From: Nemertoderma westbladi
Taxonomy: Eukaryota; Animalia; Xenacoelomorpha
Length of the DNA stretch: 64,000 bases
Reading direction: 5' to 3'
Assembly: GCA_032718475.1 (NCBI GenBank)
Contig: JAUCBJ010000331.1
Span: forward strand, 1 to 64,000
Shown: in pieces, positions 4,720 through 61,378 of the stretch
Layout: every line of letters begins with the position of its first letter
Numbering within the stretch: the first letter of the stretch is position 1
Notes under the pieces: generated by a model
Databases searched by the model: none
The model's input: only the letters and a program-made list of their open reading frames with translations
Told to the model about the DNA's origin: nothing
Made by a program: the position numbers and the translations under genes

Positions 4720-5036
4720 GTGGTACCTACATTACATATATATGTGGTACCTACATTACATATATATGTGGTACCTACATTACATATATATGTGGTACCT
4801 ACATTACATATATATGTGGTACCTACATTACATATATATGTGGTACCTACATTACATATATATGTGGTACCTACATTACATATATATGTGGTACCTACAT
4901 TACATATATATGTGGTACCTACATTACATATATATGTGGTACCTACATTACATATATATGTGGTACCTACATTACATATATATGTGGTACCTACATTACA
5001 TATATATGTGGTACCTAACCTACATTACATATATAT
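4720..5036. repeat. 24-bp minisatellite (GTGGTACCTACATTACATATATAT), about 13 copies
   Basis: Directly visible near-perfect tandem array. Confidence 0.95.
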
Positions 5037-7649: not shown

Positions 7650-7935
7650 AGTTGTTACTTTACCATTGCTTTTAATTTCGCGACAAAATAATTTCAAAAA
7701 AACGAAATATATCGAATACCACACATTGAATTGATCTGATATTTTGTAACGCGATTACGAACCACCAAAGCAATTTACTTGTAAAATTTCAACAAAGTCG
7801 CCAGGCAGGAAGTGCCTGAACCTAGATAATTATCAGTCAGTCAGTCAGTCAGTGTTATATATCCTGAGATTTTTACAGTAAGTATCCCGCAGATTTTTAC
7901 AGTAAGTATCCCGCCTGTCGAGCGGGCTCCTAATA
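7650..7935 (+). mobile_element. Possible non-autonomous Helitron/Helentron-type (DINE/HINE-like) element end
   Basis: (CAGT)n microsatellite at about 7834-7853, a 24-bp tandem duplication at about 7868-7915, and a GC hairpin CCCGC...GCGGG followed by CTAAT. Boundaries are uncertain. Confidence 0.3.
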
Positions 7936-11176: not shown

Positions 11177-11235
11177 ATGTCGGCAAAAAACATTTACTAT
11201 TCGGATAAATATACGGATGAGGAATATGAATATCG
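11177..11235 (+). CDS. CKS1: Cyclin-dependent kinase regulatory subunit (CKS1/Suc1 family), exon 1
   Basis: Encodes MSAKNIYYSDKYTDEEYEY(R). Ends CG|GTAAGT (phase 2). Confidence 0.95.
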
Positions 11236-11297
11236 GTAAGTTGAATATCGGTAAACTAAAGGCATAAAATTAACCTATTTCCTACTGCTGTACTTGT

Positions 11298-12174: not shown

Positions 12175-12265
12175 CCACGTTATTCTTCCTAAAGATTTAG
12201 CTAAATTGGTTCCAAAATCACATTTAATGACAGAAACGGAATGGCGAAACATCGGTGTGCAACAG
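12175..12265 (+). CDS. CKS1: CKS1/Suc1 family, exon 2
   Basis: TTATTTACAG| acceptor with a TACTAA branch-like site upstream. Encodes (R)[30 protein letters not shown]. Ends CAG|GTGAGT (phase 0). The phases join exons 1 and 3 exactly. Confidence 0.95.
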
Positions 12266-15200
12266 GTGAGTGAACGGAATGGCGAAACATCGGTGTGCAA
12301 CAGGTGAGTGAATGGAATGGCGAAACTTCGGTGTGCAGCAGGTGAGTGAACGGAATGGCGAAACATCGGTGTGCAACAGGTGAGTGAACGGAATGGCGAA
12401 ACATCGGTGTGCAACAGGTGAGTGAACGGAATGGCGAAACATCGGTGTGCAGCAGGTGAGTGAACGGAATGGCGAAACATCGGTGTGCAACAGGTGAGTG
12501 AACGGAATGGCGAAACATTGGTGTGCAACAGGTGAGTGAATGGAATGGCGAAACATCGGTGTGCAGCAGGTGAGTGAACGGAATGGCGAAACATCGGTGT
12601 GCAGCAGGTGAGTGAACGGAATGGCGAAACATCGGTGTGCAGCAGGTGAGTGAACGGAGTGGCGAAACATCGGTGTGCAACAGGTGAGTGAACGGAATGG
12701 CGAAACATTGGTGTGCAACAGGTGAGTGAACGGAATGGCGAAACATCGGTGTGCAACAGGTGAGTGAACGGAATGGCGAAACATTGGTGTGCAACAGGTG
12801 AGTGAACGGAATGGCGAAACATCGGTGTGCAGCAGGTGAGTGAACGGAATGGCGAAACATTGGTGTGCAACAGGTGAGTGAATGGAATGGCGAAACATCG
12901 GTGTGCAGCAGGTGAGTGAACGGAATGGCGAAACATCGGTGTGCAGCAGGTGAGTGAACGGAATGGCGAAACATCGGTGTGCAGCAGGTGAGTGAACGGA
13001 ATGGCGAAACATTGGTGTGCAACAGGTGAGTGAACGGAATGGCGAAACATCGGTGTGCAACAGGTGAGTGAACGGAGTGGCGAAACATCGGTGTGCAGCA
13101 GGTGAGTGAACGGAATGGCGAAACATCGGTGTGCAGCAGGTGAGTGAACGGAATGGCGAAACATTGGTGTGCAACAGGTGAGTGAACGGAATGGCGAAAC
13201 ATCGGTGTGCAGCAGGTGAGTGAACGGAATGGCGAAACATCGGTGTGCAACAGGTGAGTGAACGGAATGGCGAAACATCGGTGTGCAACAGGTGAGTGAA
13301 CGGAATGGCGAAACATCGGTGTGCAACAGGTGAGTGAACGGAATGGCGAAACATTGGTGTGCAACAGGTGAGTGAACGGAGTGGCGAAACATCGGTGTGC
13401 AGCAGGTGAGTGAACGGAATGGCGAAACATCGGTGTGCAGCAGGTGAGTGAACGGAATGGCGAAACATTGGTGTGCAACAGGTGAGTGAACGGAATGGCG
13501 AAACATCGGTGTGCAGCAGGTGAGTGAACGGAATGGCGAAACATCGGTGTGCAACAGGTGAGTGAACGGAATGGCGAAACATCGGTGTGCAACAGGTGAG
13601 TGAACGGAATGGCGAAACATCGGTGTGCAACAGGTGAGTGAACGGAATGGCGAAACATCGGTGTGCAACAGGTGAGTGAACGGAATGGCGAAACATTGGT
13701 GTGCAACAGGTGAGTGAACGGAGTGGCGAAACATCGGTGTGCAGCAGGTGAGTGAACGGAATGGCGAAACATCGGTGTGCAGCAGGTGAGTGAACGGAAT
13801 GGCGAAACATTGGTGTGCAACAGGTGAGTGAACGGAATGGCGAAACATCGGTGTGCAGCAGGTGAGTGAACGGAATGGCGAAACATCGGTGTGCAACAGG
13901 TGAGTGAACGGAATGGCGAAACATCGGTGTGCAACAGGTGAGTGAACGGAATGGCGAAACATCGGTGTGCAACAGGTGAGTGAACGGAATGGCGAAACAT
14001 TGGTGTGCAACAGGTGAGTGAACGGAGTGGCGAAACATCGGTGTGCAGCAGGTGAGTGAACGGAATGGCGAAACATCGGTGTGCAACAGGTGAGTGAACG
14101 GAATGGCGAAACATCGGTGTGCAGCAGGTGAGTGAACGGAGTGGAGAAACATTGGTGTGCAACAGGTGAGTGAACGGAATGGCGAAACATCGGTGTGCAA
14201 CAGGTGAGTGAACGGAATGGCGAAACATCGGTGTGCAACAGGTGAGTGAACGGAATGGCGAAACATTGGTGTGCAACAGGTGAGTGAACGGAGTGGCGAA
14301 ACATCGGTGTGCAGCAGGTGAGTGAACGGAATGGCGAAACATCGGTGTGCAGCAGGTGAGTGAACGGAATGGCGAAACATTGGTGTGCAACAGGTGAGTG
14401 AACGGAATGGCGAAACATCGGTGTGCAACAGGTGAGTGAACGGAATGGCGAAACATCGGTGTGCAACAGGTGAGTGAACGGAATGGCGAAACATCGGTGT
14501 GCAACAGGTGAGTGAACGGAATGGCGAAACATCGGTGTGCAACAGGTGAGTGAACGGAATGGCGAAACATCGGTGTGCAACAGGTGAGTGAACGGAATGG
14601 CGAAACATCGGTGTGCAACAGGTGAGTGAACGGAATGGCGAAACATTGGTGTGCAACAGGTGAGTGAACGGAATGGCGAAACATCGGTGTGCAGCAGGTG
14701 AGTGAACGGAGTGGCGAAACATCGGTGTGCAGCAGGTGAGTGAACGGAATGGCGAAACATCGGTGTGCAGCAGGTGAGTGAACGGAATGGCGAAACATTG
14801 GTGTGCAACAGGTGAGTGAACGGAATGGCGAAACATCGGTGTGCAGCAGGTGAGTGAACGGAATGGCGAAACATCGGTGTGCAGCAGGTGAGTGAACGGA
14901 ATGGCGAAACATTGGTGTGCAACAGGTGAGTGAACGGAATGGCGAAACATCGGTGTGCAGCAGGTGAGTGAACGGAATGGCGAAACATCGGTGTGCAACA
15001 GGTGAGTGAACGGAATGGCGAAACATCGGTGTGCAGCAGGTGAGTGAACGGAATGGCGAAACATCGGTGTGCAACAGGTGAGTGAACGGAATGGCGAAAC
15101 ATCGGTGTGCAGCAGGTGAGTGAACGGAATGGCGAAACATCGGTGTGCAGCAGGTGAGTGAACGGAATGGCGAAACATCGGTGTGCAACAGGTGAGTGAA

Positions 15201-18200
15201 CGGAATGGCGAAACATCGGTGTGCAGCAGGTGAGTGAACGGAATGGCGAAACATCGGTGTGCAGCAGGTGAGTGAACGGAATGGCGAAACATCGGTGTGC
15301 AGCAGGTGAGTGAACGGAATGGCGAAACATCGGTGTGCAGCAGGTGAGTGAACGGAATGGCGAAACATCGGTGTGCAGCAGGTGAGTGAACGGAATGGCG
15401 AAACATTGGTGTGCAACAGGTGAGTGAACGGAATGGCGAAACATCGGTGTGCAGCAGGTGAGTGAACGGAATGGCGAAACATCGGTGTGCAGCAGGTGAG
15501 TGAACGGAGTGGCGAAACATCGGTGTGCAACAGGTGAGTGAACGGAATGGCGAAACATCGGTGTGCAACAGGTGAGTGAACGGAATGGCGAAACATTGGT
15601 GTGCAACAGGTGAGTGAACGGAATGGCGAAACATCGGTGTGCAGCAGGTGAGTGAACGGAATGGCGAAACATCGGTGTGCAGCAGGTGAGTGAACGGAAT
15701 GGCGAAACATTGGTGTGCAACAGGTGAGTGAACGGAATGGCGAAACATCGGTGTGCAGCAGGTGAGTGAACGGAATGGCGAAACATCGGTGTGCAACAGG
15801 TGAGTGAACGGAATGGCGAAACATCGGTGTGCAGCAGGTGAGTGAACGGAATGGCGAAACATCGGTGTGCAACAGGTGAGTGAACGGAATGGCGAAACAT
15901 CGGTGTGCAACAGGTGAGTGAACGGAATGGCGAAACATCGGTGTGCAACAGGTGAGTGAACGGAATGGCGAAACATTGGTGTGCAACAGGTGAGTGAACG
16001 GAGTGGCGAAACATCGGTGTGCAGCAGGTGAGTGAACGGAATGGCGAAACATCGGTGTGCAACAGGTGAGTGAACGGAATGGCGAAACATCGGTGTGCAG
16101 CAGGTGAGTGAACGGAGTGGCGAAACATCGGTGTGCAGCAGGTGAGTGAACGGAATGGCGAAACATCGGTGTGCAGCAGGTGAGTGAACGGAATGGCGAA
16201 ACATTGGTGTGCAACAGGTGAGTGAACGGAATGGCGAAACATCGGTGTGCAGCAGGTGAGTGAACGGAATGGCGAAACATCGGTGTGCAGCAGGTGAGTG
16301 AACGGAATGGCGAAACATCGGTGTGCAACAGGTGAGTGAACGGAATGGCGAAACATCGGTGTGCAGCAGGTGAGTGAACGGAGTGGCGAAACATCGGTGT
16401 GCAACAGGTGAGTGAACGGAGTGGCGAAACATCGGTGTGCAGCAGGTGAGTGAACGGAATGGCGAAACATCGGTGTGCAGCAGGTGAGTGAACGGAATGG
16501 CGAAACATTGGTGTGCAACAGGTGAGTGAACGGAATGGCGAAACATCGGTGTGCAGCAGGTGAGTGAACGGAATGGCGAAACATCGGTGTGCAGCAGGTG
16601 AGTGAACGGAATGGCGAAACATCGGTGTGCAACAGGTGAGTGAACGGAATGGCGAAACATTGGTGTGCAACAGGTGAGTGAACGGAATGGCGAAACATCG
16701 GTGTGCAGCAGGTGAGTGAACGGAATGGCGAAACATTGGTGTGCAACAGGTGAGTGAACGGAATGGCGAAACATCGGTGTGCAACAGGTGAGTGAACGGA
16801 GTGGCGAAACATCGGTGTGCAGCAGGTGAGTGAACGGAATGGCGAAACATCGGTGTGCAGCAGGTGAGTGAACGGAATGGCGAAACATCGGTGTGCAACA
16901 GGTGAGTGAACGGAATGGCGAAACATTGGTGTGCAACAGGTGAGTGAACGGAATGGCGAAACATCGGTGTGCAGCAGGTGAGTGAACGGAATGGCGAAAC
17001 ATTGGTGTGCAACAGGTGAGTGAACGGAATGGCGAAACATCGGTGTGCAGCAGGTGAGTGAACGGAATGGCGAAACATCGGTGTGCAACAGGTGAGTGAA
17101 CGGAGTGGCGAAACATCGGTGTGCAACAGGTGAGTGAACGGAATGGCGAAACATCGGTGTGCAGCAGGTGAGTGAACGGAATGGCGAAACATTGGTGTGC
17201 AACAGGTGAGTGAACGGAATGGCGAAACATCGGTGTGCAGCAGGTGTGTTAACGGAGTGGCGAAACATCGGTGTGCAACAGGTGAGTGAACGGAATGGCG
17301 AAACATCGGTGTGCAACAGGTGAGTGAACGGAGTGGCGAAACATCGGTGTGCAGCAGGTGAGTGAACGGAGTGGCGAAACATCGGTGTGCAGCAGGTGAG
17401 TGAACGGAATGGCGAAACATCGGTGTGCAGCAGGTGAGTGAACGGAATGGCGAAACATCGGTGTGCAGCAGGTGAGTGAACGGAATGGCGAAACATCGGT
17501 GTGCAACAGGTGAGTGAACGGAATGGCGAAACATCGGTGTGCAGCAGGTGAGTGAACGGAATGGCGAAACATCGGTGTGCAACAGGTGAGTGAACGGAAT
17601 GGCGAAACATCGGTGTGCAACAGGTGAGTGAACGGAATGGCGAAACATCGGTGTGCAACAGGTGAGTGAACGGAATGGCGAAACATCGGTGTGCAACAGG
17701 TGAGTGAACGGAATGGCGAAACATCGGTGTGCAACAGGTGAGTGAACGGAATGGCGAAACATCGGTGTGCAGCAGGTGAGTGAACGGAATGGCGAAACAT
17801 TGGTGTGCAACAGGTGAGTGAACGGAATGGCGAAACATCGGTGTGCAGCAGGTGAGTGAACGGAATGGCGAAACATCGGTGTGCAACAGGTGAGTGAACG
17901 GAATGGCGAAACATCGGTGTGCAGCAGGTGAGTGAACGGAATGGCGAAACATCGGTGTGCAACAGGTGAGTGAACGGAATGGCGAAACATCGGTGTGCAA
18001 CAGGTGAGTGAATGGAATGGCGAAACATCGGTGTGCAACAGGTGAGTGAACGGAATGGCGAAACATCGGTGTGCAACAGGTGAGTGAACGGAGTGGCGAA
18101 ACATCGGTGTGCAACAGGTGAGTGAACGGAGTGGCGAAACATCGGTGTGCAACAGGTGAGTGAACGGAGTGGCGAAACATTGGTGTGCAACAGGTGAGTG

Positions 18201-19729
18201 AACGGAGTGGCGAAACATCGGTGTGCAACAGGTGAGTGAACGGAGTGGCGAAACATCGGTGTGCAACAGGTGAGTGAACGGAGTGGCGAAACATCGGTGT
18301 GCAGCAGGTGAGTGAACGGAATGGCGAAACATCGGTGTGCAACAGGTGAGTGAACGGAATGGCGAAACATCGGTGTGCAGCAGGTGAGTGAACGGAATGG
18401 CGAAACATCGGTGTGCAACAGGTGAGTGAACGGAATGGCGAAACATCGGTGTGCAACAGGTGAGTGAACGGAATGGCGAAACATCGGTGTGCAACAGGTG
18501 AGTGAACGGAGTGGCGAAACATTGGTGTGCAACAGGTGAGTGAACGGAGTGGCGAAACATCGGTGTGCAACAGGTGAGTGAACGGAGTGGCGAAACATCG
18601 GTGTGCAACAGGTGAGTGAACGGAGTGGCGAAACATCGGTGTGCAGCAGGTGAGTGAACGGAATGGCGAAACATCGGTGTGCAACAGGTGAGTGAACGGA
18701 ATGGCGAAACATCGGTGTGCAACAGGTGAGTGAACGGAGTGGCGAAACATTGGTGTGCAACAGGTGAGTGAACGGAGTGGCGAAACATCGGTGTGCAACA
18801 GGTGAGTGAACGGAGTGGCGAAACATCGGTGTGCAACAGGTGAGTGAACGGAGTGGCGAAACATCGGTGTGCAGCAGGTGAGTGAACGGAATGGCGAAAC
18901 ATCGGTGTGCAACAGGTGAGTGAACGGAATGGCGAAACATCGGTGTGCAACAGGTGAGTGAACGGAGTGGCGAAACATTGGTGTGCAACAGGTGAGTGAA
19001 CGGAGTGGCGAAACATCGGTGTGCAACAGGTGAGTGAACGGAGTGGCGAAACATCGGTGTGCAACAGGTGAGTGAACGGAGTGGCGAAACATCGGTGTGC
19101 AGCAGGTGAGTGAACGGAATGGCGAAACTTCGGTGTGCAGCAGGTGAGTGAACGGAATGGCGAAACATCGGTGTGCAACAGGTGAGTGAACGGAATGGCG
19201 AAACATCGGTGTGCAACAGGTGAGTGAACGGAATGGCGAAACATCGGTGTGCAACAGGTGAGTGAACGGAGTGGCGAAACATTGGTGTGCAACAGGTGAG
19301 TGAACGGAGTGGCGAAACATCGGTGTGCAACAGGTGAGTGAACGGAGTGGCGAAACATCGGTGTGCAGCAGGTGAGTGAACGGAATGGCGAAACATTGGT
19401 GTGCAACAGGTGAGTGAACGGAATGGCGAAACATCGGTGTGCAACAGGTGAGTGAACGGAGTGGCGAAACATTGGTGTGCAACAGGTGAGTGAACGGAGT
19501 GGCGAAACATCGGTGTGCAACAGGTGAGTGAACGGAGTGGCGAAACATCGGTGTGCAACAGGTGAGTGAACGGAGTGGCGAAACATCGGTGTGCAGCAGG
19601 TGAGTGAACGGAATGGCGAAACATTGGTGTGCAACAGGTGAGTGAACGGAATGGCGAAACATCGGTGTGCAGCAGGTGAGTGAACGGAGTGGCGAAACAT
19701 TGGTGTGCAACAGGTGAGTGAACGGAATG
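12235..19729 (+). repeat. 38-bp satellite made of the last 31 nt of CKS exon 2 plus the first 7 nt of intron 2; 197 full units and a partial unit
   Basis: Unit AACGGA(A/G)TGGCGAAACAT(C/T)GGTGTGCA(A/G)CAG|GTGAGTG. The distance 19721-12235 = 7486 = 197 x 38, so there is no net indel. Confidence 0.97.
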
Positions 19730-19731
19730 AG

Positions 19732-22700
19732 TGATCCTACTTACCTACTTATGATCCTACTCAGCTACTTATGATCCTACTTACCTACTTATGATCCTAC
19801 TTACCTACTTATGATCCTACTTACCTACTTATGATCCTACTTACCTACTTATGATCCTACTTACCTACTTATGATCCTACTTACCTACTTATGATCCTAC
19901 TTACCTACTTATGATCCTACTTACCTACTTATGATCCTACTTACCTACTTATGATCCTACTCAGCTACTTATGATCCTACTTACCTACTTATGATCCTAC
20001 TTACCTACTTATGATCCTACTCAGCTACTTATGATCCTACTTACCTACTTATGATCCTACTCAGCTACTTATGATCCTACTTACCTACTTATGATCCTAC
20101 TCATCTACTTATGATCCTACTTACCTACTTATGATCCTACTTACCTACTTATGATCCTACTCTGCTACTTATGATCCTACTTACCTACTTATGATCCTAC
20201 TTACCTACTTATGATCCTACTTACCTACTTATGATCCTACTTACCTACTTATGATCCTAATTACCTACTTATGATCCTACTTACCTACTTATGATCCTAC
20301 TTACCTACTTATGATCCTACTCAGCTACTTATGATCCTACTTACCTACTTATGATCCTACTTACCTACTTATGATCCTACTCAGCTACTTATGATCCTAC
20401 TTACCTACTTATGATCCTACTTACCTACTTATGATCCTACTTACCTACTTATGATCCTACTTACCTACTTATGATCCTACTTACCTACTTATGATCCTAC
20501 TTACCTACTTATGATCCTACTCTGCTACTTATGATCCTACTTACCTACTTATGATCCTACTTACCTACTTATGATCCTACTTACCTACTTATGATCCTAC
20601 TTACATACTTATGATCCTACTTACCTACTTATGATCCTACTCAGCTACTTATGATCCTACTTACCTACTTATGATCCTACCCAGCTACTTATGATCCTAC
20701 TCAGCTACTTATGATCCTACATTCCTACTTATGATCCTACTCAGCTACTTATGATCCTACTTACCTACTTATGATCCTACTCAGCTACTTATGATCCTAC
20801 TTACCTACTTATGATCCTACGTACCTACTTATGATCCTACTCAGCTACTTATGATCCTACTTACCTACTTATGATCCTACTCAGCTACTTATGATCCTAC
20901 TTACCTACTTATGATCCTACTTACCTACTTATGATCCTACTCATCTACTTATGATCCTACTTACCTACTTATGATCCTACTTATGATCCTACTTACCTAC
21001 TTATGATCCTACTTACCTACTTATGATCCTACTTACCTACTTATGATCCTACTTACCTACTTATGATCCTACTTACCTACTTATGATCCTACTTACCTAC
21101 TTATGATCCTACTTACCTACTTATGATCCTACTTACCTACTTATGATCCTACTTACCTACTTATGATCATACTTACCTACTTATGATCCTACTTACCTAC
21201 TTATGATCCTACTTACCTACTTATGATCCTACTTACCTACTTATGATCCTACTTACCTACTTATGATCCTACTTACCTACTTATGATCCTACTTACCTAC
21301 TTATGATCCTACTCATCTACTTATGATCCTAATTACCTACTTATGATCCTACTCATCTACATATGATCCTACTTACCTACATATGATCCTACTTACCTAC
21401 TTATGATCCTACTTACCTACTTATGATCCTACTTACCTACTTATGATCCTACTTACCTACTTATGATCCTACTTACCTACTTATGATCCTACTTACCTAC
21501 TTATGATCCTACTTACCTACTTATGATCCTACTTACCTACTTATGATCCTACTTACCTACTTATGATCCTACTTACCTACTTATGATCCTACTTACCTAC
21601 TTATGATCCTACTTACCTACTTATGATCCTACTTAGCTACTTATGATCCTACTTACCTACTTATGATCCTACTTACCTACTTATGATCCTACTTACCTAC
21701 TTATGATCCTACTTACCTACTTATGATCCTACTTACCTACTTATGATCCTACTTACCTACTTATGATCCTACTTACCTACTTATGATCCTACTTACCTAC
21801 TTATGATCCTACTTACCTACTTATAATCCTACTTACCTACTTATGATCCTACTTACCTACTTATGATCCTACTTACCTACTTATGATCCCACTTACCTAC
21901 TTATGATCCTACTTACCTACTTATGATCCTACTTACCTACTTATGATCCTACTCAGCTACTTATGATCCTACTTACCTACTTATGATCCTACTTACCTAC
22001 TTATGATCCTACACAGCTACTTATGATCCTACTTACCTACTTATGATCCTACTTACCTACTTATGATCCTACTTACCTACTTATGATCCTACTTACCTAC
22101 TTATGATCCTACTTACCTACTTATGATCCTACTTACCTACTTATGATCCTACTTACCTACTTATGATCCTACTTACCTACTTATGATCCTACTTACCTAC
22201 TTATGATCCTACTTACCTACTTATGATCCTACTTACCTACTTATGATCCTACTCACCTACTTATGATCCTACTTACCTACTTATGATCCTACTTACCTAC
22301 TTATGATCCTACTTACCTACTTATGATCCTACTTACCTACTTATGATCCTACTTACCTACTTATGATCCTACTTACCTACTTATGATCCTACTCACCTAC
22401 TTATGATCCTACTTACCTACTTATGATCCTACTTACCTACTTATGATCCCACTTACCTACTTATGATCCTACTTACCTACTTATGATCCTACTTACCTAC
22501 TTATGATCCTACTTACCTACTTATGATCCTACTCAGCTACTTATGATCCTACTCAGCTACTTATGATCCTACTTACCTACTTATGATCCTACTTACCTAC
22601 TTATGATCCTACTTACCTACTTATGATCCTACTTACCTACTTATGATCCTACTTACCTACTTATGATCCTACTTACCTACTTATGATCCTACTTACCTAC

Positions 22701-25700
22701 TTATGATCCTACTCAGCTACTTATGATCCTACTCAGCTACTTATGATCCTACTTACCTACTTATGATCCTACTTACCTACTTATGATCCTACTTACCTAC
22801 TTATGATCCTACTTACCTACTTATGATCCTACTTACCTACTTATGATCCTACTTACCTACTTATGATCCTACTTACCTACTTATGATCCTACTCAGCTAC
22901 TTATGATCCTACTTACCGACTTATGATCCTACTCAGCTACTTATGATCCTACTTACCTACTTATGATCCTACTTACCTACTTATGATCCTACTTACCTAC
23001 TTATGATCCTACTTACCTACTTATGATCCTACTTACCTACTTATGATCCTACTTACCTACTTATGATCCTACTTACCTACTTATGATCCTACTTACCTAC
23101 TTATGATCCTACTTACCTACTTATGATCCTACTTACCTACTTATGATCCTACTTACCTACTTATGATCCTACTTACCTACTTATGATCCTACACAGCTAC
23201 TTATGATCCTACTTACCTACTTATGATCCTACTTACCTACTTATGATCCTACTTACCTACTTATGATCCTACTTACCTACTTATGATCCTACTTACCTAC
23301 TTATGATCCTACTTACCTACTTATGATCCTACTTACCTACTTATGATCCTACTTACCTACTTATGATCCTACTTACCTACTTATGATCCTACTTACCTAC
23401 TTATGATCCTACTTACCTACTTATGATCCTACTCAGCTACTTATGATCCTACTTACCTACTTATGATCCTACTTACCTACTTATGATCCTACTTACCTAC
23501 TTATGATCCTACTTACCTACTTATGATCCTACTTACCTACTTATGATCCTACTTACCTACTTATGATCCTACTTACCTACTTATGATCCTACTTACCTAC
23601 TTATGATCCTACTCAGCTACTTATGATCCTACTTACCGACTTATGATCCTACTCAGCTACTTATGATCCTACTTACCTACTTATGATCCTACTTACCTAC
23701 TTATGATCCTACTTACCTACTTATGATCCTACTTACCTACTTATGATCCTACTTACATACTTATGATCCTACTTACCTACTTATGATCCTACTTACCTAC
23801 TTATGATCCTACTCAGCTACTTATGATCCTACTTACCTACTTATGATCCTACTCAGCTACTTATGATCCTACTTACCTACTTATGATCCTACATACCTAC
23901 TTATGATCCTACTCAGCTACTTATGATCCTACTTACCTACTTATGATCCTACTTACCTACTTATGATCCTACTCAGCTACTTATGATCCTACTTACCTAC
24001 TTATGATCCTACTTACCTACTTATGATCCTACTTACCTACTTATGATCCTACTTACATACTTATGATCCTACTTACCTACTTATGATCCTACTTACCTAC
24101 TTATGATCCTACTTACCTACTTATGATCCTACTTACCTACTTATGATCCTACTCATCTACTTATGATCCTACTTACCTACTTATGATCCTACTTAGGATC
24201 CTACTTACCTACTTATGATCCTACTTACCTACTTATGATCCTACTTACCTACTTATGATCCTACTTACCTACTTATGATCCTACTTACCTACTTATGATC
24301 CTACTTACCTACTTATGATCCTACTTACCTACTTATGATCCTACTTACCTACTTATGATCCTACTTACCTACTTATGATCCTACTTACCTACTTATGATC
24401 CTACTTACCTACTTATGATCCTACTTACCTACTTATGATCCTACTTACCTACTTATGATCCTACTTACCTACTTATGATCCTACTCAGCTACTTATGATC
24501 CTACTTACCTACTTATGATCCTACTCAGCTACTTATGATCCTACTTACCTACTTATGATCCTACATACCTACTTATGATCCTACTCAGCTACTTATGATC
24601 CTACTTACCTACTTATGATCCTACTTACCTACTTATGATCCTACTCAGCTACTTATGATCCTACTTACCTACTTATGATCCTACTTACCTACTTATGATC
24701 CTACTTACCTACTTATGATCCTACTTACATACTTATGATCCTACTTACCTACTTATGATCCTACTTACCTACTTATGATCCTACTTACCTACTTATGATC
24801 CTACTTACCTACTTATGATCCTACTCATCTACTTATGATCCTACTTACCTACTTATGATCCTATTTAGGATCCTACTTACCTACTTATGATCCTACTTAC
24901 CTACTTATGATCCTACTTACCTACTTATGATCCTACTTACCTACTTATGATCCTACTTACCTACTTATGATCCTACTTACCTACTTATGATCCTACTTAC
25001 CTACTTATGATCCTACTTACCTACTTATGATCCTACTTACCTACTTATGATCCTACTTACCTACTTATGATCCTACTTACCTACTTATGATCCTACTTAC
25101 CTACTTATGATCCTACTCATCTACTTATGATCCTACTTACCTACTTATGATCCTACTCATCTACTTATGATCCTACTTACCTACTTATGATCCTACTCAG
25201 CTACTTATGATCCTACTTACCTACTTATGATCCTACTTACCTACTTATGATCCTACTTACCTACTTATGATCCTACTTACCTACTTATGATCCTACTTAC
25301 CTACTTATGATCCTACTTACCTACTTATGATCCTACTTACCTACTTATGATCCTACTCAGCTACTTATGATCCTACTTACCCACTTATGATCCTACTTAC
25401 CTACTTATGATCCTACTTACCTACTTATGATCCTACTTACCTACTTATGATCCTACTTACCTACTTATGATCCTACTCAGCTACTTATGATCCTACTTAC
25501 CTACTTATGATTCTACTTACCTACTTATGATCCTACTCAGCTACTTATGATCCTACTTACCTACTTATGATCCTACTTACCTACTTATGATCCTACTTAT
25601 CTACTTATGATCCTACTTACCTACTTATGATCCTACTTACCTACTTATGATCCTACTTACCTACTTATGATCCTACTTACCTACTTATGATCCTACTTAC

Positions 25701-28700
25701 CTACTTATGATCCTACTTACCTACTTATGATCCTACTTACCTACTTATGATCCTACTCAGCTACTTATGATCCTACTTACCTACTTATGATCCTACTTAC
25801 CTACTTATGATCCTACTTACCTACTTATGATCCTACTTACCTACTTATGATCCTACTTACCTACTTATGATCCTACTCATCTACTTATGATCCTACTTAC
25901 CTACTTATGATCCTACTCATCTACTTATGATCCTACTTACCTACTTATGATCCTACTTACCTACTTATAATCCTACTTACCTACTTATGATCCTACTCAT
26001 CTACTTATGATCCTACTTACCTACTTATGATCCTACTCATCTACTTATGATCCTACTTACCTACTTATGATCCTACTTACCTACTTATGATCCTACTCAG
26101 CTACTTATGATCCTACTTACCTACTTATGATCCTACTTACCTACTTATGATCCTACTTACCTACTTATGATCCTACTTACCTACTTATGATCCTACTTAC
26201 CTACTTATGATCCTACTTACCTACTTATGATCCTACTCATCTACTTATGATCCTACTTACCTACTTATGATCCTACTCATCTACTTATGATCCTACTTAC
26301 CTACTTACCTACGGTCACCCTTCACAAAACTCACCTGTCTAAGGAAGAGTTCCGCGACGCTCTGTGTCTGCGCTACGGCTGGCAACCGAAGTCGCTCCCT
26401 TCTCGTTGTGTCTGTGGGGAACGATTTTCCCCTTCACACGTCCTGTCGTGCCCCACCGGGGGTTATCCCTCGATAAGGCACAACGAGATACGCGATTTCG
26501 TTGCCGACGCGCTAACTGAAGTAGCCCACAACGTCGCAGTAGAGCCAGCACTCCAGCCTCTTAACAGGTGAGGAGTTCACCCACAGATCCACCTCCACAG
26601 AAGATCAGGCGAGGTTGGACGTCTCTGTCAGCGGGTTCTGGGGTGGCCGGTTCGAGAAGACTTACTTCGACGTCTCGGTCTACAACCCTCTAGCGGCCAC
26701 CAACGCAGCCATGACCACCGAGGGCGCTTATTCCCACCACGAGGCGCGGAAACGCCTGAAGTACGAGGAGCGCATCCGAGAGGTCGAACTGTCGTCGTTT
26801 GTGCCTCTGATACTTTCAGCCTTTGGTGGTACCGCGCCAGCGATGCAACAGTTCGTTAAGCGTTTATCGCTTAAACTCTCGGATCGTCGCGACCTCAGCT
26901 ACTCTGAGTGTATCTGCTGGACGCGGAGGAAGATAAGCTTCGCGCTTCTCCGCTCCAGTTTGATGTGTCTCCGTGGAGCGAGATCCGCCACCAAACGCCC
27001 TGTTTATCATCAGGTGTCCGCAGACTCGATTCGCCTGACTAACGCTGATACCAACACCGGCTAGACTGACTGTCAGTGGTAGTCATAGGCCTCTAAACAG
27101 GCCCTTCTTTCTTTATTTATTATTTTTTTTTATTATCGGTATCGGTGTAGGAATTATTCATTTTGTTCTATTAATAAAGTGCCTGTAAAAGAGTTATGCT
27201 GATATTGTGCAAATTATATAATAAACTAGTAACTTAAAAAAAAAAAAAAACTTACCTACTTATGATCCTACTCAGCTACTTATGATCCTACTTACCTACT
27301 TATGATCCTACTTACCTACTTATGATCCTACTTACCTACTTATGATCCTACTTACCTACTTATGATCCTACTTACCTACTTATGATCCTAATTACCTACT
27401 TATGATCCTACTTACCTACTTATGATCCTACTTACCTACTTATGATCCTACTCACCTACTTATGATCCTACTTACCTACTTATGATCCTACTTACCTACT
27501 TATGATCCTACTCAGCTACTTATGATCCTACTTACCTACTTATGATCCTACTTACCTACTTATGATCCTACTTACCTACTTATGATCCTACTTACCTACT
27601 TATGATCCTACTTACCTACTTATGATCCTACTTACCTACTTATGATCCTACTTACCTACTTATGATCCTACTTACCTACTTATGATCCTACTTACCTACT
27701 TATGATCCTACTTACCTACTTATGATCCTACTTACCTACTTATGATCCTACTTACCTACTTATGATCCTACTCATCTACTTATGATCCTACTTACCTACT
27801 TATGATCCTACTCATCTACTTATGATCCTACTTACCTACTTATGATCCTACTCAGCTACTTATGATCCTACTTACCTACTTATGATCCTACTTACCTACT
27901 TATGATATCCTACTTACCTACTTATGATCCTACTTACCTACTTATGATCCTACTTACCTACTTATGATCCTACTTACCTACTTATGATCCTACTTACCTA
28001 CTTATGATCCTACTTACCTACTTATGATCCTACTCACCTACTTATGATCCTACTTACCTACTTATGATCCTACTTACCTACTTATGATCCTACTTACCTA
28101 CTTATGATCCTACTCACCTACTTATGATCCTACTTACCTACTTATGATCCTACTCGGCTACTTATGATCCTACTTACCTACTTATGATCCTACTCATCTA
28201 CTTATGATCCTACTTACCTACTTATGATCCTACTTACCTACTTATAATCCTACTTACCTACTTATGATCCTACTCATCTACTTATGATCCTACTTACCTA
28301 CTTATGATCCTACTCATCTACTTATGATCCTACTTACCTACTTATGATCCTACTTACCTACTTATGATCCTACTCAGCTACTTATGATCCTACTTACCTA
28401 CTTATGATCCTACTTACCTACTTATGATCCTACTCAGCTACTTATGATCCTACTTACCTACTTATGATCCTACTTACCTACTTATGATCCTACTTACCTA
28501 CTTATGATCCTACTTACCTACTTATGATCCTACTTACCTACTTATGATCCTACTCAGCTACTTATGATCCTACTTACCTACTTATGATCCTACATTCCTA
28601 CTTACCTACTTATGATCCTACTTGCCTACTTATGATCCTACTCAGCTACTTATGATCCTACTTACCTACTTATGATCCTACTTACCTACTTATGATCCTA

Positions 28701-31700
28701 CTTACCTACTTATGATCCTACTTACCTACTTATGATCCTACTTACCTACTTATGATCCTACTTACCTACTTATGATCCTACTTACCTACTTATGATCCTA
28801 CTTACCTACTTATGATCCTACTTACCTACTTATGATTCTACTTACCTACTTATGATCCTACTTATGATCCTACTTACCTACTTATGATCCTACTTACCTA
28901 CTTATGATCCTACTTACCTACTTATGATCCTACTTACCTACTTATGATCCTACTTACCTACTTATGATCCTACTTACCTACTTATGATCCTACTTACCTA
29001 CTTATGATCCTACTTACCTACTTATAATTCTACTTACCTACTTATGATCCTACTTATGATCCTACTTACCTACTTATGATCCTACTTACCTACTTATGAT
29101 CCTACTTACCTACTTATGACCCTACTTACCTACTTATGATCCTAATTACCTACTTATGATCCTACTCATCTACTTATGATCCTACTTACCTACTTATGAT
29201 CCTACTTACCTACTTATGATCCTACTTACCTACTTATGATCCTACTTACCTACTTATGATCCTACTTACCTACTTATGATCCTACTTATGATCCTACTTA
29301 CCTACTTATGATCCTACTTACCTACTTATGATCCTACTTACCTACTTATGATCCTACTTACCTACTTATGATCCTACTTACCTACTTATGATCCTACTTT
29401 CCTACTTATGATCCTACTTACCTACTTATGATCCTACTCAGCTACTTATGATCCTACTTACCTACTTATGATCCTACTTACCTACTTATGATCCTACTAC
29501 AGCTACTTATGATCCTACTTACCTACTTATGATCCTACTTACCTACTTATGATCCTACTTACCTACTTATGATCCTACTTACCTACTTATGATCCTACTT
29601 ACCTACTTATGATCCTACTTACCTACTTATGATCCTACTTACCTACTTATGATCCTACTTACCTACTTATGATCCTACTTACCTACTTATGATCCTACTT
29701 ACCTACTTATGATCCTACTCAGCTACTTATGATCCTACTTACCTACTTATGATCCTACTCACCTACTTATGATCCTACTTACCTACTTATGATCCTACTT
29801 ACCTACTTATGATCCTACTTACCTACTTATGATCCTACTTACCTACTTATGATCCTACTCAGCTACTTATGATCCTACTTACCTACTTATGATCCTACTT
29901 ACCTACTTATGATCCTACTTACCTACTTATGATCCTACTTACCTACTTATGATCCTACTTACCTACTTATGATCCTACTTACCTACTTATGATCCTACTT
30001 ACCTACTTATGATCCTACTCAGCTACTTATGATCCTACTTACCTACTTATGATCCTACTTACCTACTTATGATCCTACTTACCTACTTATGATCCTACTT
30101 ACCTACTTATGATCCTACTTACCTACTTATGATCCTACGTACCTACTTATGATCATAATCAGCTACTTATGATCCTACTTACCTACTTATGATCCTACTT
30201 ACCTACTTATGATCCTACTCAGCTACTTATGATCCTACTTACCTACTTATGATCCTACTTACCTACTTACCTACTTATGATCCTACTTACCTACTTATGA
30301 TCCTACTTATGATCCTACTTACCTACTTATGATCCTACTTACCTACTTATGATCCTACTTACCTACTTATGATCCTACTTATGATCCTACTTACCTACTT
30401 ATGATCCTACTCAGCTACTTATGATCCTACTTACCTACTTATGATCCTACTTACCTACTTATGATCCTACTTACCTACTTATGATCCTACTTACCTACTT
30501 ATGATCCTACTCACCTACTTATGATCCTACTTACCTACTTATGATCCTACTCATCTACTTATGATCCTACTTACCTACTTATGATCCTACTTACCTACTT
30601 ATGATCCTACTTACCTACTTATGATCCTACTTACCTACTTATGATCCTACTTACCTACTTATGATCCTACTTACCTACTTATGATCCTACTTACCTACTT
30701 ATGATCCTACTTACCTACTTATGATCCTACTTACCTACTTATGATCCTACTCACCTACTTATGATCCTACTTACCTACTTATGATCCTACTCAGCTACTT
30801 ATGATCCTACTTACCTACTTATGATCCTACTTACCTACTTATGATCCTACTTACCTACTTATGATCCTACTTACCTACTTATGATCCTACTTACCTACTT
30901 ATGATCCTACTTACCTACTTATGATCCTACTTACCTACTTATGATCCTACTTACCTACTTATGATCCTACTTACCTACTTATGATCCTACTTACCTACTT
31001 ATGATCCTACTTACCTACTTATGATCCTACTTACCTACTTATGATCCTACTCACCTACTTATGATCCTACTTACCTACTTATGATCCTACTCCTACTTAT
31101 GATCCTACTTACCTACTTATGATCCTACTCATCTACTTATGATCCTACTTACCTACTTATGATCCTACTTACCTACTTATGATCCTACTTACCTACTTAT
31201 GATCCTACTCACCTACTTATGATCCTACTTACCTACTTATGATCCTACTCATCTACTTATGATCCTACTTACCTACTTATGATCCTACTTACCTACTTAT
31301 GATCCTACTCACCTACTTATGATCCTACTTACCTACTTATGATCCTACTTACCTACTTATGATCCTACTCAGCTACTTATGATCCTACTTACCTACTTAT
31401 GATCCTACTTACCTACTTATGATCCTACTTACCTACTTATGATCCTACTTACCTACTTATGATCCTACTTACCTACTTATGATCCTACTCAGCTACTTAT
31501 GATCCTACTTACCTACTTATGATCCTACATTCCTACTTACCTACTTATGATCCTACTTACCTACTTATGATCCTACTCAGCTACTTATGATCCTACTTAC
31601 CTACTTATGATCCTACTTACCTACTTATGATCCTACTTACCTACTTATGATCCTACTTACCTACTTATGATCCTACTTACCTACTTATGATCCTACTTAC

Positions 31701-34700
31701 CTACTTATGATCCTACTTACCTACTTATGATCCTACTTACCTACTTATGATCCTACTTACCTACTTATGATTCTACTTACCTACTTATGATCCTACTTAT
31801 GATCCTACTTACCTACTTATGATCCTACTTACCTACTTATGATCCTACTTACCTACTTATGACCCTACTTACCTACTTATGATCCTACTTACCTACTTAT
31901 GATCCTACTTACCTACTTATGATCCTACTTACCTACTTATGATCCTACTTACCTACTTATAATTCTACTTACCTACTTATGATCCTACTTATGATCCTAC
32001 TTACCTACTTATGATCCTACTTACCTACTTATGATCCTACTTACCTACTTATGACCCTACTTACCTACTTATGATCCTACTTACCTACTTATGATCCTAC
32101 TCATCTACTTATGATCCTACTTACCTACTTATGATCCTACTTACCTACTTATGATCCTACTTACCTACTTATGATCCTACTTACCTCCTTATGATCCTAC
32201 TTACCTACTTATGATCCTACTTATGATCCTACTTACCTACTTATGATCCTACTTACCTACTTATGATCCTACTTACCTACTTATGATCCTACTTACCTAC
32301 TTATGATCCTACTTACCTACTTATGATCCTACTTTCCTACTTATGATCCTACTTACCTACTTATGATCCTACTCAGCTACTTATGATCCTACTTACCTAC
32401 TTATGATCCTACTTACCTACTTATGATCCTACACAGCTACTTATGATCCTACTTACCTACTTATGATCCTACTTACCTACTTATGATCCTACTTACCTAC
32501 TTATGATCCTACTTACCTACTTATGATCCTACTTACCTACTTATGATCCTACTTACCTACTTATGATCCTACTTACCTACTTATGATCCTACTTACCTAC
32601 TTATGATCCTACTTACCTACTTATGATCCTACTTACCTACTTATGATCCTACTCAGCTACTTATGATCCTACTTACCTACTTATGATCCTACTCAGCTAC
32701 TTATGATCCTACTTACCTACTTATGATCCTACTTACCTACTTATGATCCTACTTACCTACTTATGATCCTACTTACCTACTTATGATCCTACTCAGCTAC
32801 TTATGATCCTACTTACCTACTTATGATCCTACTTACCTACTTATGATCCTACTTACCTACTTATGATCCTACTTACCTACTTATGATCCTACTTACCTAC
32901 TTATGATCCTACTTACCTACTTATGATCCTACTTACCTACTTATGATCCTACTCAGCTACTTATGATCCTACTTACCTACTTATGATCCTACTTACCTAC
33001 TTATGATCCTACTTACCTACTTATGATCCTACTTACCTACTTATGATCCTACTTACCTACTTATGATCCTACGTACCTACTTATGATCATAATCAGCTAC
33101 TTATGATCCTACTTACCTACTTATGATCCTACTTACCTACTTATGATCCTACTCAGCTACTTATGATCCTACTTACCTACTTATGATCCTACTTACCTAC
33201 TTACCTACTTATGATCCTACTTACCTACTTATGATCCTACTTATGATCCTACTTACCTACTTATGATCCTACTTACCTACTTATGATCCTACTTACCTAC
33301 TTATGATCCTACTTATGATCCTACTTACCTACTTATGATCCTACTCAGCTACTTATGATCCTACTTACCTACTTATGATCCTACTTACCTACTTATGATC
33401 CTACTTACCTACTTATGATCCTACTTACCTACTTATGATCCTACTCATCTACTTATGATCCTACTTACCTACTTATGATCCTACTCATCTACTTATGATC
33501 CTACTTACCTACTTATGATCCTACTTACCTACTTATAATCCTACTTACCTACTTATGATCCTACTCATCTACTTATGATCCTACTTACCTACTTATGATC
33601 CTACTCATCTACTTATGATCCTACTTACCTACTTATGATCCTACTTACCTACTTATGATCCTACTCAGCTACTTATGATCCTACTTACCTACTTATGATC
33701 CTACTTACCTACTTATGATCCTACTTACCTACTTATGATCCTACTTACCTACTTATGATCCTACTTACCTACTTATGATCCTACTTACCTACTTATGATC
33801 CTACTTACCTACTTATGATCCTACTTATGATCCTACTTACCTACTTATGATCCTACTTACCTACTTATGATCCTACTTACCTACTTATGATCCTACTTAC
33901 CTACTTATGATCCTACTTACCTACTTATGATCCTACTTACCTACTTATGATCCTACTTACCTACTTATGATCCTACTCATCTACTTATGATCCTACTTAC
34001 CTACTTATGATCCTACTCATCTACTTATGATCCTACTTACCTACTTATGATCCTACTCAGCTACTTATGATCCTACTTACCTACTTATGATCCTACTTAC
34101 CTACTTATGATCCTACTTACCTACTTATGATCCTACTTACCTACTTATGATCTTACTTACCTACTTATGATCCTACTTACCTACTTATGATCCTACTTAC
34201 CTACTTATGATCCTACTTACCTACTTATGATCCTACTCAGCTACTTATGATCCTACTTACCTACTTATGATCCTACTTACCTACTTATGATCCTACTTAC
34301 CTACTTATGATCCTACTTACCTACTTATGATCCTACTTACCTACTTATGATCCTACTCAGCTACTTATGATCCTACTTACCTACTTATGATCCTACTTAC
34401 CTACTTATGATCCTACTTACCTACTTATGATCCTACTTACCTACTTATGATCCTACTTACCTACTTATGATCCTACTTACCTACTTATGATCCTACTTAC
34501 CTACTTATGATCCTACTCAGCTACTTATGATCCTACTTACCTACTTATGATCCTACTTACCTACTTATGATCCTACTTACCTACTTATGATCCTACTTAC
34601 CTACTTATGATCCTACTTACCTACTTATGATCCTACTTACCTACTTATGATCCTACTTACCTACTTATGATCCTACTTACCTACTTATGATCCTACTTAT

Positions 34701-34860
34701 CTACTTATGATCCTACTTACCTACTTATGATCCTACTTACCTACTTATGATCCTACTTACCTACTTATAATCCTACTTACCTACTTATGATCCTACTTAC
34801 CTACTTATAATCCTACTTACCTACTTATGATCCTACTTACCTACTTATGATCCTACTTAC
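19732..34860 (+). repeat. 20-bp satellite (TGATCCTACTTACCTACTTA), roughly 700 units, within CKS intron 2
   Basis: Directly visible. The unit is TGAT plus two copies of CCTACTTA. Variants are TCAGCT, TCATCT or TCACCT in place of TTACCT, with occasional 12-bp and 28-bp units. Confidence 0.97.
26308..27250 (+). mobile_element. 5'-truncated non-LTR retrotransposon with restriction-like endonuclease (CRE-clade-like), inserted in the 20-bp satellite
   Basis: EFRDALCLRYG, a CCHC knuckle (CVCG...HVLSC), RHNEIRD, RLDV..SGFW...YFDV, E..KR.KY and FVPLILSAFGG. One frameshift near 26565 and a stop at 27064. AATAAA at about 27173, a 15-nt poly(A) ending 27250, and CTTACCTAC on both flanks. Confidence 0.88.
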
Positions 34861-35043
34861 TTGGTTAGGAAACACCGTCAATGTAACCTGCTCCTTCCCC
34901 TTAATGGTTTAATTTCAATAAATTTATATTTTTTCAAATAATTGCAATTCCGAAATCTAGAAATCGTTATGACGTCATTATAATTGATAGCTAGATTTCT
35001 CGAAGGGCCGCCGTTTAGTAATTTAGTTTTTTTTTTATTCCAG

Positions 35044-35166
35044 AGCCAAGGCTGGATCCATTACATGATGCATGAACCGGAACCCCATATCCTGTTGTTC
35101 CGCAGAGCAGCTCCGGGTCAAACAGCTGCTCAATCAAAGCAATCAGTCGTGCAGAAAGTCCATTAA
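35044..35166 (+). CDS. CKS1: CKS1/Suc1 family, exon 3
   Basis: Strong acceptor (T-run then ATTCCAG|). Encodes [21 protein letters not shown]...VH*. The spliced CDS is 59+91+123 = 273 nt, giving 90 aa. Confidence 0.95.
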
Positions 35167-36066
35167 AGCCAACAAATAACCCGGTCGCAATAATTGTATA
35201 TTGTGGACAGCCCACCATATATTATACTCGATGTTCGTTCGCTTTGTGATTAATAACTAAATACATTATAAATAATACGTTAATATTTACAATAAACTTT
35301 CCTAGTTTACTTTACTGTGTTTGCTTATTGTTTCCGTTATACTTTACTATGCATCTTCGACTTACACAAACATGTCGTTATAGTTGTGTATTAAATAATA
35401 CACGTGTAAATATATTTAGCAAAGTTATTGTTTGTGAGTTATATTTTTATTAAATCTTATTAAATATTGAATTACATTCTGGTCGTGATACTCAACTATA
35501 TATTTCTTTTCCCCAACTGTATAAACCATATAACTTAATGTGTCTTTTGCTACTAAACTTTTACATTTTAATAAGACATTTGTATGCATCTTCATTTGAT
35601 AATTTCCTATTTACGCACGTCAGTGTAAAATAACACTTTGAGTGAAACACCGAAAAGTTGCCAAAAAGCTCCATAAATGTTAGACAATGTATAATTCCAC
35701 TTCTACTAATCGAAATTTCATAAAATAAAGTTCATACGATGCCTTAAATTCTAAACAATATTGGACACCACATCTGTGCAGCATATTATAAAAGTATAGT
35801 TTCGTAATTAACTCTTGAATGCAAAAAATATAGGAAAAATGCAATTTTCACATCAATGTAGTGATCATTTCATTGATTTAAATGTTATTCTTTATATATT
35901 AATATTTCAAAAGGTATGGATGCTGATACAGTATAACAATAGCGACAAAATAAGAAAGCTAAGGGGGGAGGGTGGGTGTGTAAGTTAGTCTGTTTCATTG
36001 GGGAGGGGGGGTATGTAAGTCCTTTCCGTCGGGTGGGGGGGGGGGGGGGGGGGGGGTGGTGGAGTA

Positions 36067-36310
36067 TTAGGGGCCATTAATGAGTGAGGGGTCCACGGTC
36101 CCCGTAATGGAGGCCGCATTGCCGACCAGGATGGCGATTGCCAGCCTTTGCAGGAGGAAGCGGTGAGATCGAGGCTCCTGGGGGACAGAGTGGAGTCTTG
36201 CCCCGATCTCCTTCAGGAACTCGGATGCTTCAGGGCCGGGGCGGCCCAAGGTCTCGTAGGCTACCGGATGGAAGAGGTAGCCCCGGTCTATGAGTTCCTG
36301 GTACTTTCAT
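36067..36310 (-). mobile_element. 3'-terminal fragment of a second RLE-type (CRE-like) non-LTR retrotransposon
   Basis: KYQEL..GYLFHPVAYETLG..GPEA.EFLKEIG.RL...EPRS..FLLQRLAIAI..GNAASI.GT is the typical C-terminus of this group. Confidence 0.75.
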
Positions 36311-43400: not shown

Positions 43401-43502
43401 CTGGTCTGTAACTGCTTTGGTCTGTAACTACCCTGGTCTGTAACTGCTCTGGTCTGTAACTGCTCTGGTCTGTAACTGCTTTGGTCTGTAACTGCTCTGG
43501 TC
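37497..43502. repeat. 16-bp satellite (CTGTAACTGCTCTGGT), about 370 units with higher-order blocks
   Basis: Directly visible. Variants include GCCC, ACCC, GCTT, GATC and GCAC. Blocks with the same variant order recur at 41.3-43.4 kb. Confidence 0.97.
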
Positions 43503-43581
43503 GGGTGGTCCAAGCTGAGTACAATACCTACGAGGAACTGTTTTACGACATCGCGTATCTAGCCATCGACGAGGCGTTACA

Positions 43582-46137: not shown

Positions 46138-46156
46138 TCTTATAAATCGCCGCTAC

Positions 46157-50970: not shown

Positions 50971-51497
50971 CACGACAAAGATTAACCAAAGAAAATGATT
51001 GAATATAGTTGGAAACGATGAAAAGGATCAGACAACTCTACTATAAACCTGAATGATGATGCGTATGCTGATGAAAATGAAATGATGCGCACCCTGGTGC
51101 TGCGCTTATAACAATGATGATAGCCGGGGGGCTATAAACCCAATGATGATGTGGAAATAAATAAATGTGAAATAAATGGTGGAAATAAATATGTTGAAAT
51201 ATGTGGAAATAAATGAAATGAGATGAAATAATAATGAAATGAAAAAAGACAAAAAAAAGGTATAAAAAGGTCTAAGAAAAGAATTGGAAAAAAGAAAGGA
51301 CAAAAAAGTCATAAAAAACTGGTTGGATATTAATGTATAGTTATAGTAACTGTAAATGCTGAATGTATTAGCAATAAGATGATAGATGCCTATATAGCAA
51401 TGTTATTAATAAACTGAATTAAATAAAAAACTGAATCATTCTGCTATCGCTATAGTTTCAGACTTTCTGGACTTATAATTAACTGATCTAATTTGTA

Positions 51498-60655: not shown

Positions 60656-60811
60656 AGTTTAGATGTCCAATATGTTGGACTGAGGGGGGTGGAATGAGGG
60701 CAAGACGCCCTTCCCACACACCAAAAAACACAAAAAAATAATAAAATAAGAAGTGAGATAGTAGAAAGTTAGAAAGTAATAGTAGTAGATAATAAGATAG
60801 TAAGTAGCACT

Positions 60812-61378
60812 AGTTAGAAGTTAGGGAGTGTGGTATATAGACATACCACGAGAGTAGTAGCAGGGTACATAGTACCGGAGTAGTAGGGTACATAGTACCG
60901 TAAGAAGCTAGAAGTTAAAAGTTAGGGAGTGTGGTATATTATTGACATACCACGAGAGTAGTAGCGGGGTACATAGTACCGGAGTAGTAGGGTACATAGT
61001 ACCATTAGTAGTAGTTAGAAGTTAGGGAGTGTGGTATATGGACATACCACGAGAGTAGTAGCAGGGTACATAGTACCGGAGTAGCAGGGTACATAGTACC
61101 GTTAGTAGTAGTTAGAAGTTAGAGAGTGTGGTATATAGACATACCACGAGAGTAGTAACAGGGTACATAGTACCGGGGTAGCAGGGTACATAGTACCGTA
61201 AGAGGCAGAGGTTAGAAGTTAGGGAGTGTGGTATATAGACATACCACGAGAGTAATAGTAGGGTACATAGTACCGTAAGAGTTAGAAATTAGAGTTAGTA
61301 GAAGTTAGTAGTAAGAGAGTAGAGAGTATGGTATATAGGTATACCATAAGATTAGTAGTAGGGTACATAGTACCGTAG
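60812..61378 (+). repeat. ~100-bp tandem modules of small hairpins downstream of BEL2 pol
   Basis: About five to six copies of GTGGTAT-loop-ATACCAC, each followed by one or two copies of GGTAC-ATA-GTACC. Confidence 0.85.

Follow-up and report, generated by a model that had tools for sequence, protein, structure and literature searches.

Intron 2 of a CKS gene from the xenacoelomorph Nemertoderma westbladi contains two abutting satellites, a 38-nt repeat (38-mer) that multiplies the 5′ splice site (donor) of the intron and a 20-nt repeat (20-mer) most units of which carry a motif complementary to that donor and identical to part of the 5′ end of U1 small nuclear RNA (snRNA). The gene lies within a stretch of 64,000 nt (contig JAUCBJ010000331.1, positions 1 to 64,000, forward strand; hereafter the window), and an earlier note on this DNA had proposed that the two satellites form a pair of decoy donors and U1-mimicking antidote. 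Our analysis indicates that the architecture is real and unusual, and that it is most likely a by-product of the amplification of a single hairpin. Whether or not it is neutral, the locus provides an extreme natural test of donor choice, with 196 identical donors and ~560 exact anti-donor motifs in a 22.8-kb intron and mRNA still made from donor 1 despite both arrays, and it points to a specific way in which paired satellites could be born, one per arm of a small palindrome. Were fold-back between the arrays to matter, satellite RNA would gain a new role in splicing, as cis-acting antisense to donors.

Organization of CKS intron 2

The gene model comprises three exons on the plus strand that encode a 90-residue protein, with exons 2 and 3 matching the Pfam CKS family (PF01111) and the 3′ untranslated region (UTR) ending at a poly(A) loose end (35498) in run X3. 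Intron 2 (12266-35043, 22,778 nt) consists, in order, of the 38-mer array, the 20-mer array with a 938-nt insertion, and ~180 nt of other DNA (Table 1). Each 38-mer is made of the last 31 nt of exon 2 and intron positions +1 to +7, and its 7.5-kb array holds 196 intact donor motifs among 197 units.

Table 1 Features of the CKS gene and its second intron.
Feature	Position	Strand	Basis or remark
CKS exon 1, coding part	11177..11235	+	Gene model
CKS exon 2, ending at donor 1 (used donor)	12175..12265	+	Gene model, Pfam; copy-1 context in spliced contigs
38-mer array, 197 full units	12235..19729	+	Tandem Repeats Finder (TRF); holds left arm of putative hairpin
Array junction	19721..19751	+	38-mer shortened by 25 nt, ends in donor bases +4 to +7, then 4-nt loop and first nonamer
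20-mer array (whole)	19732-34860		TRF
20-mer array, left part	19732..26312	+	TRF, unit count
Non-LTR (long terminal repeat) retroelement 3′ end, 5′-truncated, frame-broken, 938 nt	26313..27250	+	Poly(A) end, 9-nt target duplication
20-mer array, right part; terminal 12-mer unit plus C	27251..34860	+	Sequence; distal join in X1 and X2 contigs
Dispersed high-copy repeat, left-truncated copy, directly after 20-mer array	34861..34910	+	Many contigs with other flanks
CKS exon 3 (coding 35044-35166, stop at 35166) and 3′ UTR to poly(A) site	35044..35498	+	Gene model, Pfam

The 20-mer sequence has expanded to 14.2 kb. Unit counting gives 711 members of the 20-mer family, 527 of them exact consensus, in agreement with the ~700 copies of the earlier note, whereas the TRF figure of 758 copies is too high because the 938-nt insertion splits the array. 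This insertion had been missed when the region was described as a single 20-mer satellite, a description that otherwise stands. It is a retroelement fragment, which by its motifs may be of the restriction-like endonuclease type; a Pfam search of it gave no match, and its atlas match (0.97) is to eukaryote clusters without names. Given its sense orientation and two AATAAA motifs (27173 and 27220), the fragment is a possible site of premature polyadenylation or oligo-dT priming within the intron.

The two arrays do abut, but the 2-nt gap previously placed between them reads better as a final 38-mer that has lost 25 nt between TG microhomologies, in which case donor bases +6 and +7 are common to both arrays. 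The abutment is seen in the window assembly only: contigs of runs X1 (a possible source of the window), X2 and X5 (which are one sample) contain both arrays, and among the contigs listed for these runs none bridges the two. The distal end of the 20-mer array is joined to unique intron DNA in contigs of X1 and X2. Among the contigs listed, none carried the 20-mer next to a foreign flank, although flank contigs share just 30 nt with the repeat and would escape such a listing. Each consensus 31-mer of the 20-mer array has ~437 copies in the window, and the depth of a consensus 20-mer contig in X1 (15,750, versus 10.4 in unique flank) was not taken as a copy number.

Three common variants of the 38-mer (44, 38 and 77 units; 12235-19720) are each synonymous in the frame of exon 2; as 10 of 31 possible transitions are synonymous, this would arise ~3% of the time by chance. 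One of the three is the exon-2 allele found in a spliced X3 contig, and 38-mer units may cycle between exon and array.

A donor-complementary motif in the 20-mer

As previously claimed, most 20-mer units contain TACTTACCT, of which the array holds 559 instances and the rest of the window none on either strand; ACTCACCT is found 12 times. The predicted 9-bp helix between this nonamer and the donor also holds, the consensus giving seven Watson-Crick and two G·U pairs, and the helix is unbroken in 596 of 690 full-length units and broken in 94. The full 11-nt segment of U1 cited in the earlier note has no match in the window, in which the 10-mer is found once and the 9-mer 559 times. Calling the 20-mer a U1 mimic adds nothing beyond calling it an inverted near-consensus donor, because the reverse complement of the consensus donor is, by definition, the 5′ end of U1. 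We also considered a U1 snRNA gene, variant, pseudogene or fragment, which is ruled out by the lack of an 11-nt match, of any Rfam match to the U1 body (stem-loops and Sm site) at gathering score in the window, and of an snRNA body; around both ends of the array, Rfam gave no match even at E ≤ 10.

Complementarity of this kind is uncommon in control sequences. Shuffled cyclic 20-mers include the U1 nonamer in 834 of 400,000 cases and can form a 9-bp helix with the donor in 993 of 50,000, while among 19,236 background 20-mers the nonamer is present in 2 and the helix in 21. The donor complementarity is thus not plain chance, at about 1e-3 to 1e-4, and would be unlikely as a single trial.

An origin by chance and slippage is nevertheless suggested by the build of the unit, which is TGAT followed by two identical 8-mers with the U1-like nonamer spanning their junction. 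A pyrimidine-rich 12-mer in the head of the intron could have gained an 8-nt duplication whose junction made the nonamer, with no inverted copy and no function. The terminal unit of the array is indeed a 12-mer, and 12-mer and 28-mer units recur within it; moreover, a 7-bp stem on +1 to +7 is available at 126 of 19,236 background positions, and CCTAC is enriched 1.9-fold in the unique DNA of the window. However, a Markov estimate expects the U1 nonamer in just 1.4-3.3e-4 of 20-mers, and a model containing only the terminal 12-mer already forms a 10-bp stem over -3 to +7 (the last 3 nt of the 12-mer may belong to the dispersed repeat). We regard this explanation as unlikely.

Because each consensus unit reads AG|GTAAGTA on the minus strand, and the distal boundary also starts GTAAGTA, the 20-mer could instead mirror the 38-mer, having arisen by amplification of a donor that serves a minus-strand transcript or element. 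The repeated motif at 7867 and the duplication of the intron-1 donor (described below) suggest that donor-like sites duplicate here, but no exon was identified on the minus strand. Alternatively, the abutment could be an assembly join, although the junction has donor bases +4 to +7 in register, as is not expected from an artefact, and contigs from two studies connect the distal array end to intron DNA. Together these are, in our judgement, very improbable.

A single hairpin as the probable origin of both satellites

We favour, as the probable explanation, that a short inverted repeat once lay on the CKS intron-2 donor and that each of its arms was amplified separately into one of the satellites, the U1 likeness being a by-product and no masking having been selected. 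In a collapsed model with one copy per array, the donor and the nonamer pair over 9 bp around a 4-nt loop (-9.6 kcal/mol) and the donor is paired with probability 0.82-1.0; such a 9-bp stem is possible at only 6 of 19,236 background positions. The boundary of the 38-mer, at +7/+8, coincides with the edge between arm and loop, and that of the 20-mer, at +5/+6, falls within the arm, two bases from its edge. Slippage by 8 nt continues in the 20-mer array, as its 12-mer and 28-mer units show. A single inverted repeat of this kind would account for both the complementarity and the abutment, and plausibly for local instability as well; the U1 likeness would follow because the local hairpin is an inverted near-consensus donor.

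In the proposed sequence of events, a single-copy intron would have begun with the donor, a 4-nt loop and an inverted donor, possibly produced by replication template switching, which can create hairpins in one step (PMC8794818, in the part drawn on here); had this happened while the donor was nearer consensus, the match to the U1 5′ end would have been automatic. Slippage or breakage at the hairpin tip would then have duplicated 38 nt leftward and 12 or 20 nt rightward, unequal exchange would have enlarged these to arrays of 7.5 and 14.2 kb, and the retroelement would have inserted later. Variants of the 20-mer (19732-34860) form higher-order blocks that recur every tens to ~100 units, as expected from unequal exchange. 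Donor 1 would be committed first, through exon definition and 5′-to-3′ order, and splicing from later donors would give products with a shifted frame or a premature stop.

The same collapsed model could be read in the reverse order, in which the 20-mer grew beside the true donor and inhibited it, and selection then favoured the 38-mer array as a sponge and spacer holding the anti-donor copies at a distance from donor 1. That model sequesters the true donor completely, donor-covering stems are described as inhibiting U1 recruitment (PMC1802598, in the part drawn on here), and, with the 38-mer array now in place, donor 1 and the first motif are separated by 7.47 kb that contains 195 further identical targets. 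Yet the data give no sequence of events, and the 38-mer array is already explained as an ordinary donor-spanning minisatellite, so that this order seems improbable to us.

Donor choice and the need for an antidote

Runs X3 and X4 were read as cDNA from exon-exon joins, and in X3 also from the poly(A) end, rather than from run records. An X4 contig joins exon 3 to exon 2 in a context unique to copy 1, and two X3 contigs (depths 6,000 and 1,122) join exon 3 to exon 2 with three upstream letters that are incompatible with the repeat and assign the junction to copy 1. Spliced transcripts therefore use the first donor, although the contigs do not imply exclusive use. No X3 contig covers the intronic part of the 38-mer array or a later-donor context, though contigs drop rare forms and nonsense-mediated decay would hide such products; from the sequence, donors 2-5 are predicted to yield truncated proteins. 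The human F7 gene, which carries a 37-bp donor-spanning variable number tandem repeat (VNTR), behaves similarly: only its most upstream functional site was used in ~50 constructs, its authors found no masking structure, and no antidote is described in the sections drawn on here (PMC1557585). With donor 1 used in spliced CKS mRNA, donor choice probably does not require a U1-mimic antidote.

To model fold-back, we applied a protein-free, partition-function equilibrium model to 0.5 kb comprising the last six donors and the first twelve 20-mers. The idea that the 20-mers can mask the donors is borne out in this setting, with donor-20-mer pairing of 0.92 compared to a total pairing of 0.28 without 20-mers. 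The proposed matching of two 20-mers to one 38-mer appears as a register in the best model fold, but does not describe the arrays, which hold 3.6 20-mers per donor. Comparison with shuffled controls, suggested in the earlier note as a check, went against a special fold: the energy of -41 kcal/mol is equalled or beaten by 31 of 60 shuffles of the same composition. A dimer test found equal stability for 20% of 5,000 shuffles, and the unrelated 16-mer satellite of this window, used as a folding control, reaches -39 kcal/mol with a masking of 0.63. As shuffles and the 16-mer satellite do similarly, much of the attraction is that of a purine-rich array meeting a pyrimidine-rich array, and fold-back of the finished intron may occur but would be incidental.

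These results bear on the antidote proper, in which the 20-mer array owes its retention or expansion to folding back on uncommitted decoys during transcription of the remaining 15 kb, stripping them of U1 and so protecting donor-1 splicing. Its appeal lies in the high modelled masking with its two-to-one register, in the helix kept by most units, and in the timing, as the entire 20-mer array is transcribed before the acceptor is made, such that masking is still conceivable. Decoys could also be costly, given that a donor-rich tandem-repeat RNA of chicken is described as recruiting small nuclear ribonucleoproteins (10.64898/2026.03.19.712899, in the part drawn on here), and the RNA-like run X3 includes a contig of consensus 20-mers, which may represent either strand and could be explained by premature polyadenylation or oligo-dT priming at the retroelement fragment.

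Against selection of such a pair stand the ordinary folding energy and the concentration of unit variation in the motif. The nonamer duplex with the donor (-11.2) is weaker than that of U1 itself (-13.5), though two joined flanking 20-mers reach -13.7. Donor 1 is not spared by its sequence: the motif pairs equally well with the true donor, and sequence cannot tell donor 1 from the decoys. Moreover, donor 1 (12266) lies 7.47 kb from the first motif (19738-19746), and in a fold-back the junction-side decoys are nearest the motifs and the proximal ones farthest, whereas in human genes it is proximal decoys that are known to compete, with 6-16 and CBS leaking to proximal pseudo-sites (PMC1557585, in the sections drawn on here); first-donor use in F7 is there said to follow scanning. 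We accordingly find the antidote, as the earlier note framed it, improbable.

Evidence weighing on the proposed hairpin origin

Several observations nonetheless weigh against a neutral hairpin. Its single-copy ancestor is reconstructed, not seen. Among 50 metagenome CKS loci, none shows an intron at the intron-2 position; 49 read through it (38 in the standard code, the other 11 having stops at expected Gln positions) and one is unreadable. In 15 of the 50, the sequence begins near residue 20, as a split at intron 1 would produce, and continues beyond the intron-2 position. As these loci run past it, intron 2 looks lineage-specific. Protein searches found no close relatives, the CKS exon 3 matches coming from many animal groups, and a 26-nt piece of the 20-mer array had no match in metagenome contigs. 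The arms of the hairpin differ at two of nine positions, both of them G·U-compatible, a pattern that fits a constraint on the RNA no less than decay of a copied DNA segment, and the known F7-type arrays, from human, have 5-25 copies versus 196 here. In the fold-back model, masking as good as that observed occurs in only 4 of 60 shuffles (placing it in the top 7%), and of 70 amplified background 20-mers one is as stable and none reaches a masking of 0.8 or more.

Variation among 20-mer units points in both directions. Variant letters number 254 within the nine motif positions and 25 in the other eleven, and the alleles seen are 13 of 27 possible inside the motif versus 8 of 33 outside (Fisher p = 0.063); those that break the helix are represented by 9 of 20 and those that do not by 4 of 7. 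The motif shows no sign of purifying selection, but these counts are weak either way because they reflect shared descent and not independent events. The commonest motif substitution (115 units) strengthens donor pairing and the second retains it by wobble, both of which also count against the neutral view, while the third (75 units) breaks the helix.

A more far-reaching possibility is that a donor-masking RNA hairpin grew into two co-evolving kilobase satellites, the relative lengths of a 196-copy donor sponge and a 700-copy anti-donor array tuning CKS splicing by long-range fold-back. We consider this rather unlikely, and the functional versions taken together only a little less so.

Relation to known systems

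The 38-mer array belongs to the donor-spanning minisatellites of F7 type, which include the 37-bp VNTR of F7 intervening sequence (IVS) 7, CBS IVS13, IFI6 (6-16), LMNB2 and PDGF. As in those genes, the first monomer spans the exon-intron boundary, identical pseudo-donors follow and the most upstream site is used; the CKS array differs in having roughly ten times the copy numbers, in a unit that is mostly exon, and in being followed by a second, complementary satellite, of which none is described for F7-type genes in the sections of the source drawn on here (PMC1557585).

The TSL2 stem of SMN exon 7 is a cis sequence that pairs over the U1-binding site, according to the part of PMC1802598 drawn on here, and the collapsed CKS model is such a stem. 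In the present intron, by contrast, the first motif is 7.47 kb from the used donor, a local stem over that donor exists only in the collapsed model, and both arms are multiplied; the CKS stem is itself a product of modelling. Inverted repeats made by template switching likewise consist of a short adjacent reverse-complement copy forming a hairpin (PMC8794818, same limit). In the collapsed model the two copies are adjacent, with a 4-nt loop, but the arms match at just 7 of 9 positions, the ancestor is reconstructed, and each arm would then have seeded a satellite.

Chicken LL2R is also a transcribed tandem array with an excess of donor sites that may load U1, but its unit is noncoding, its monomers are large, and no anti-donor array is described in the part of the report drawn on here (10.64898/2026.03.19.712899). 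With U1 snRNA, its variants and its pseudogenes, the 20-mer has in common nine consecutive nucleotides of the 5′ end. A pair of donor and anti-donor satellites was not found in the literature searched, which was covered by titles and the starts of abstracts and included few subscription papers; PMC7404189 and PMC10078293, each drawn on in part, served as general background only.

Other features of the window

The intron-1 donor of CKS is also tandemly duplicated (11227-11254; period 15, with 13 identical nt), and the 14.5 kb of non-satellite DNA in the window has just one other duplication of this kind. This second one (7860-7914, period 24) carries a GTAAGT donor-like motif, with no exon identified there, and donor-like sites may be duplication-prone in this genome. 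The end motif of the dispersed repeat that follows the 20-mer array has four look-alikes in the window (8684, 9189, 10148 and 37328), compared to 0.06 expected.

Upstream of CKS, a single-exon open reading frame (ORF) with a double HMG box (1265-1798) has best protein matches that are ~40% identical, and a smaller tandem array of 24 nt lies at 4720-5017. Downstream, at ~36110-36310 and beside a long G run, the minus strand appears by eye to hold another retroelement 3′ fragment, and the third satellite, the 16-mer, has 371 copies (37497-43502). ORFs of BEL/Pao-type LTR retrotransposons are found at 43519-50272, with Pfam support, and at 55830-60100, broken into pieces. Between them, an 874-residue ORF (51492-54116) had no match in a Pfam search, and a tandem array with units of about 97-100 nt occupies 60800-61378.

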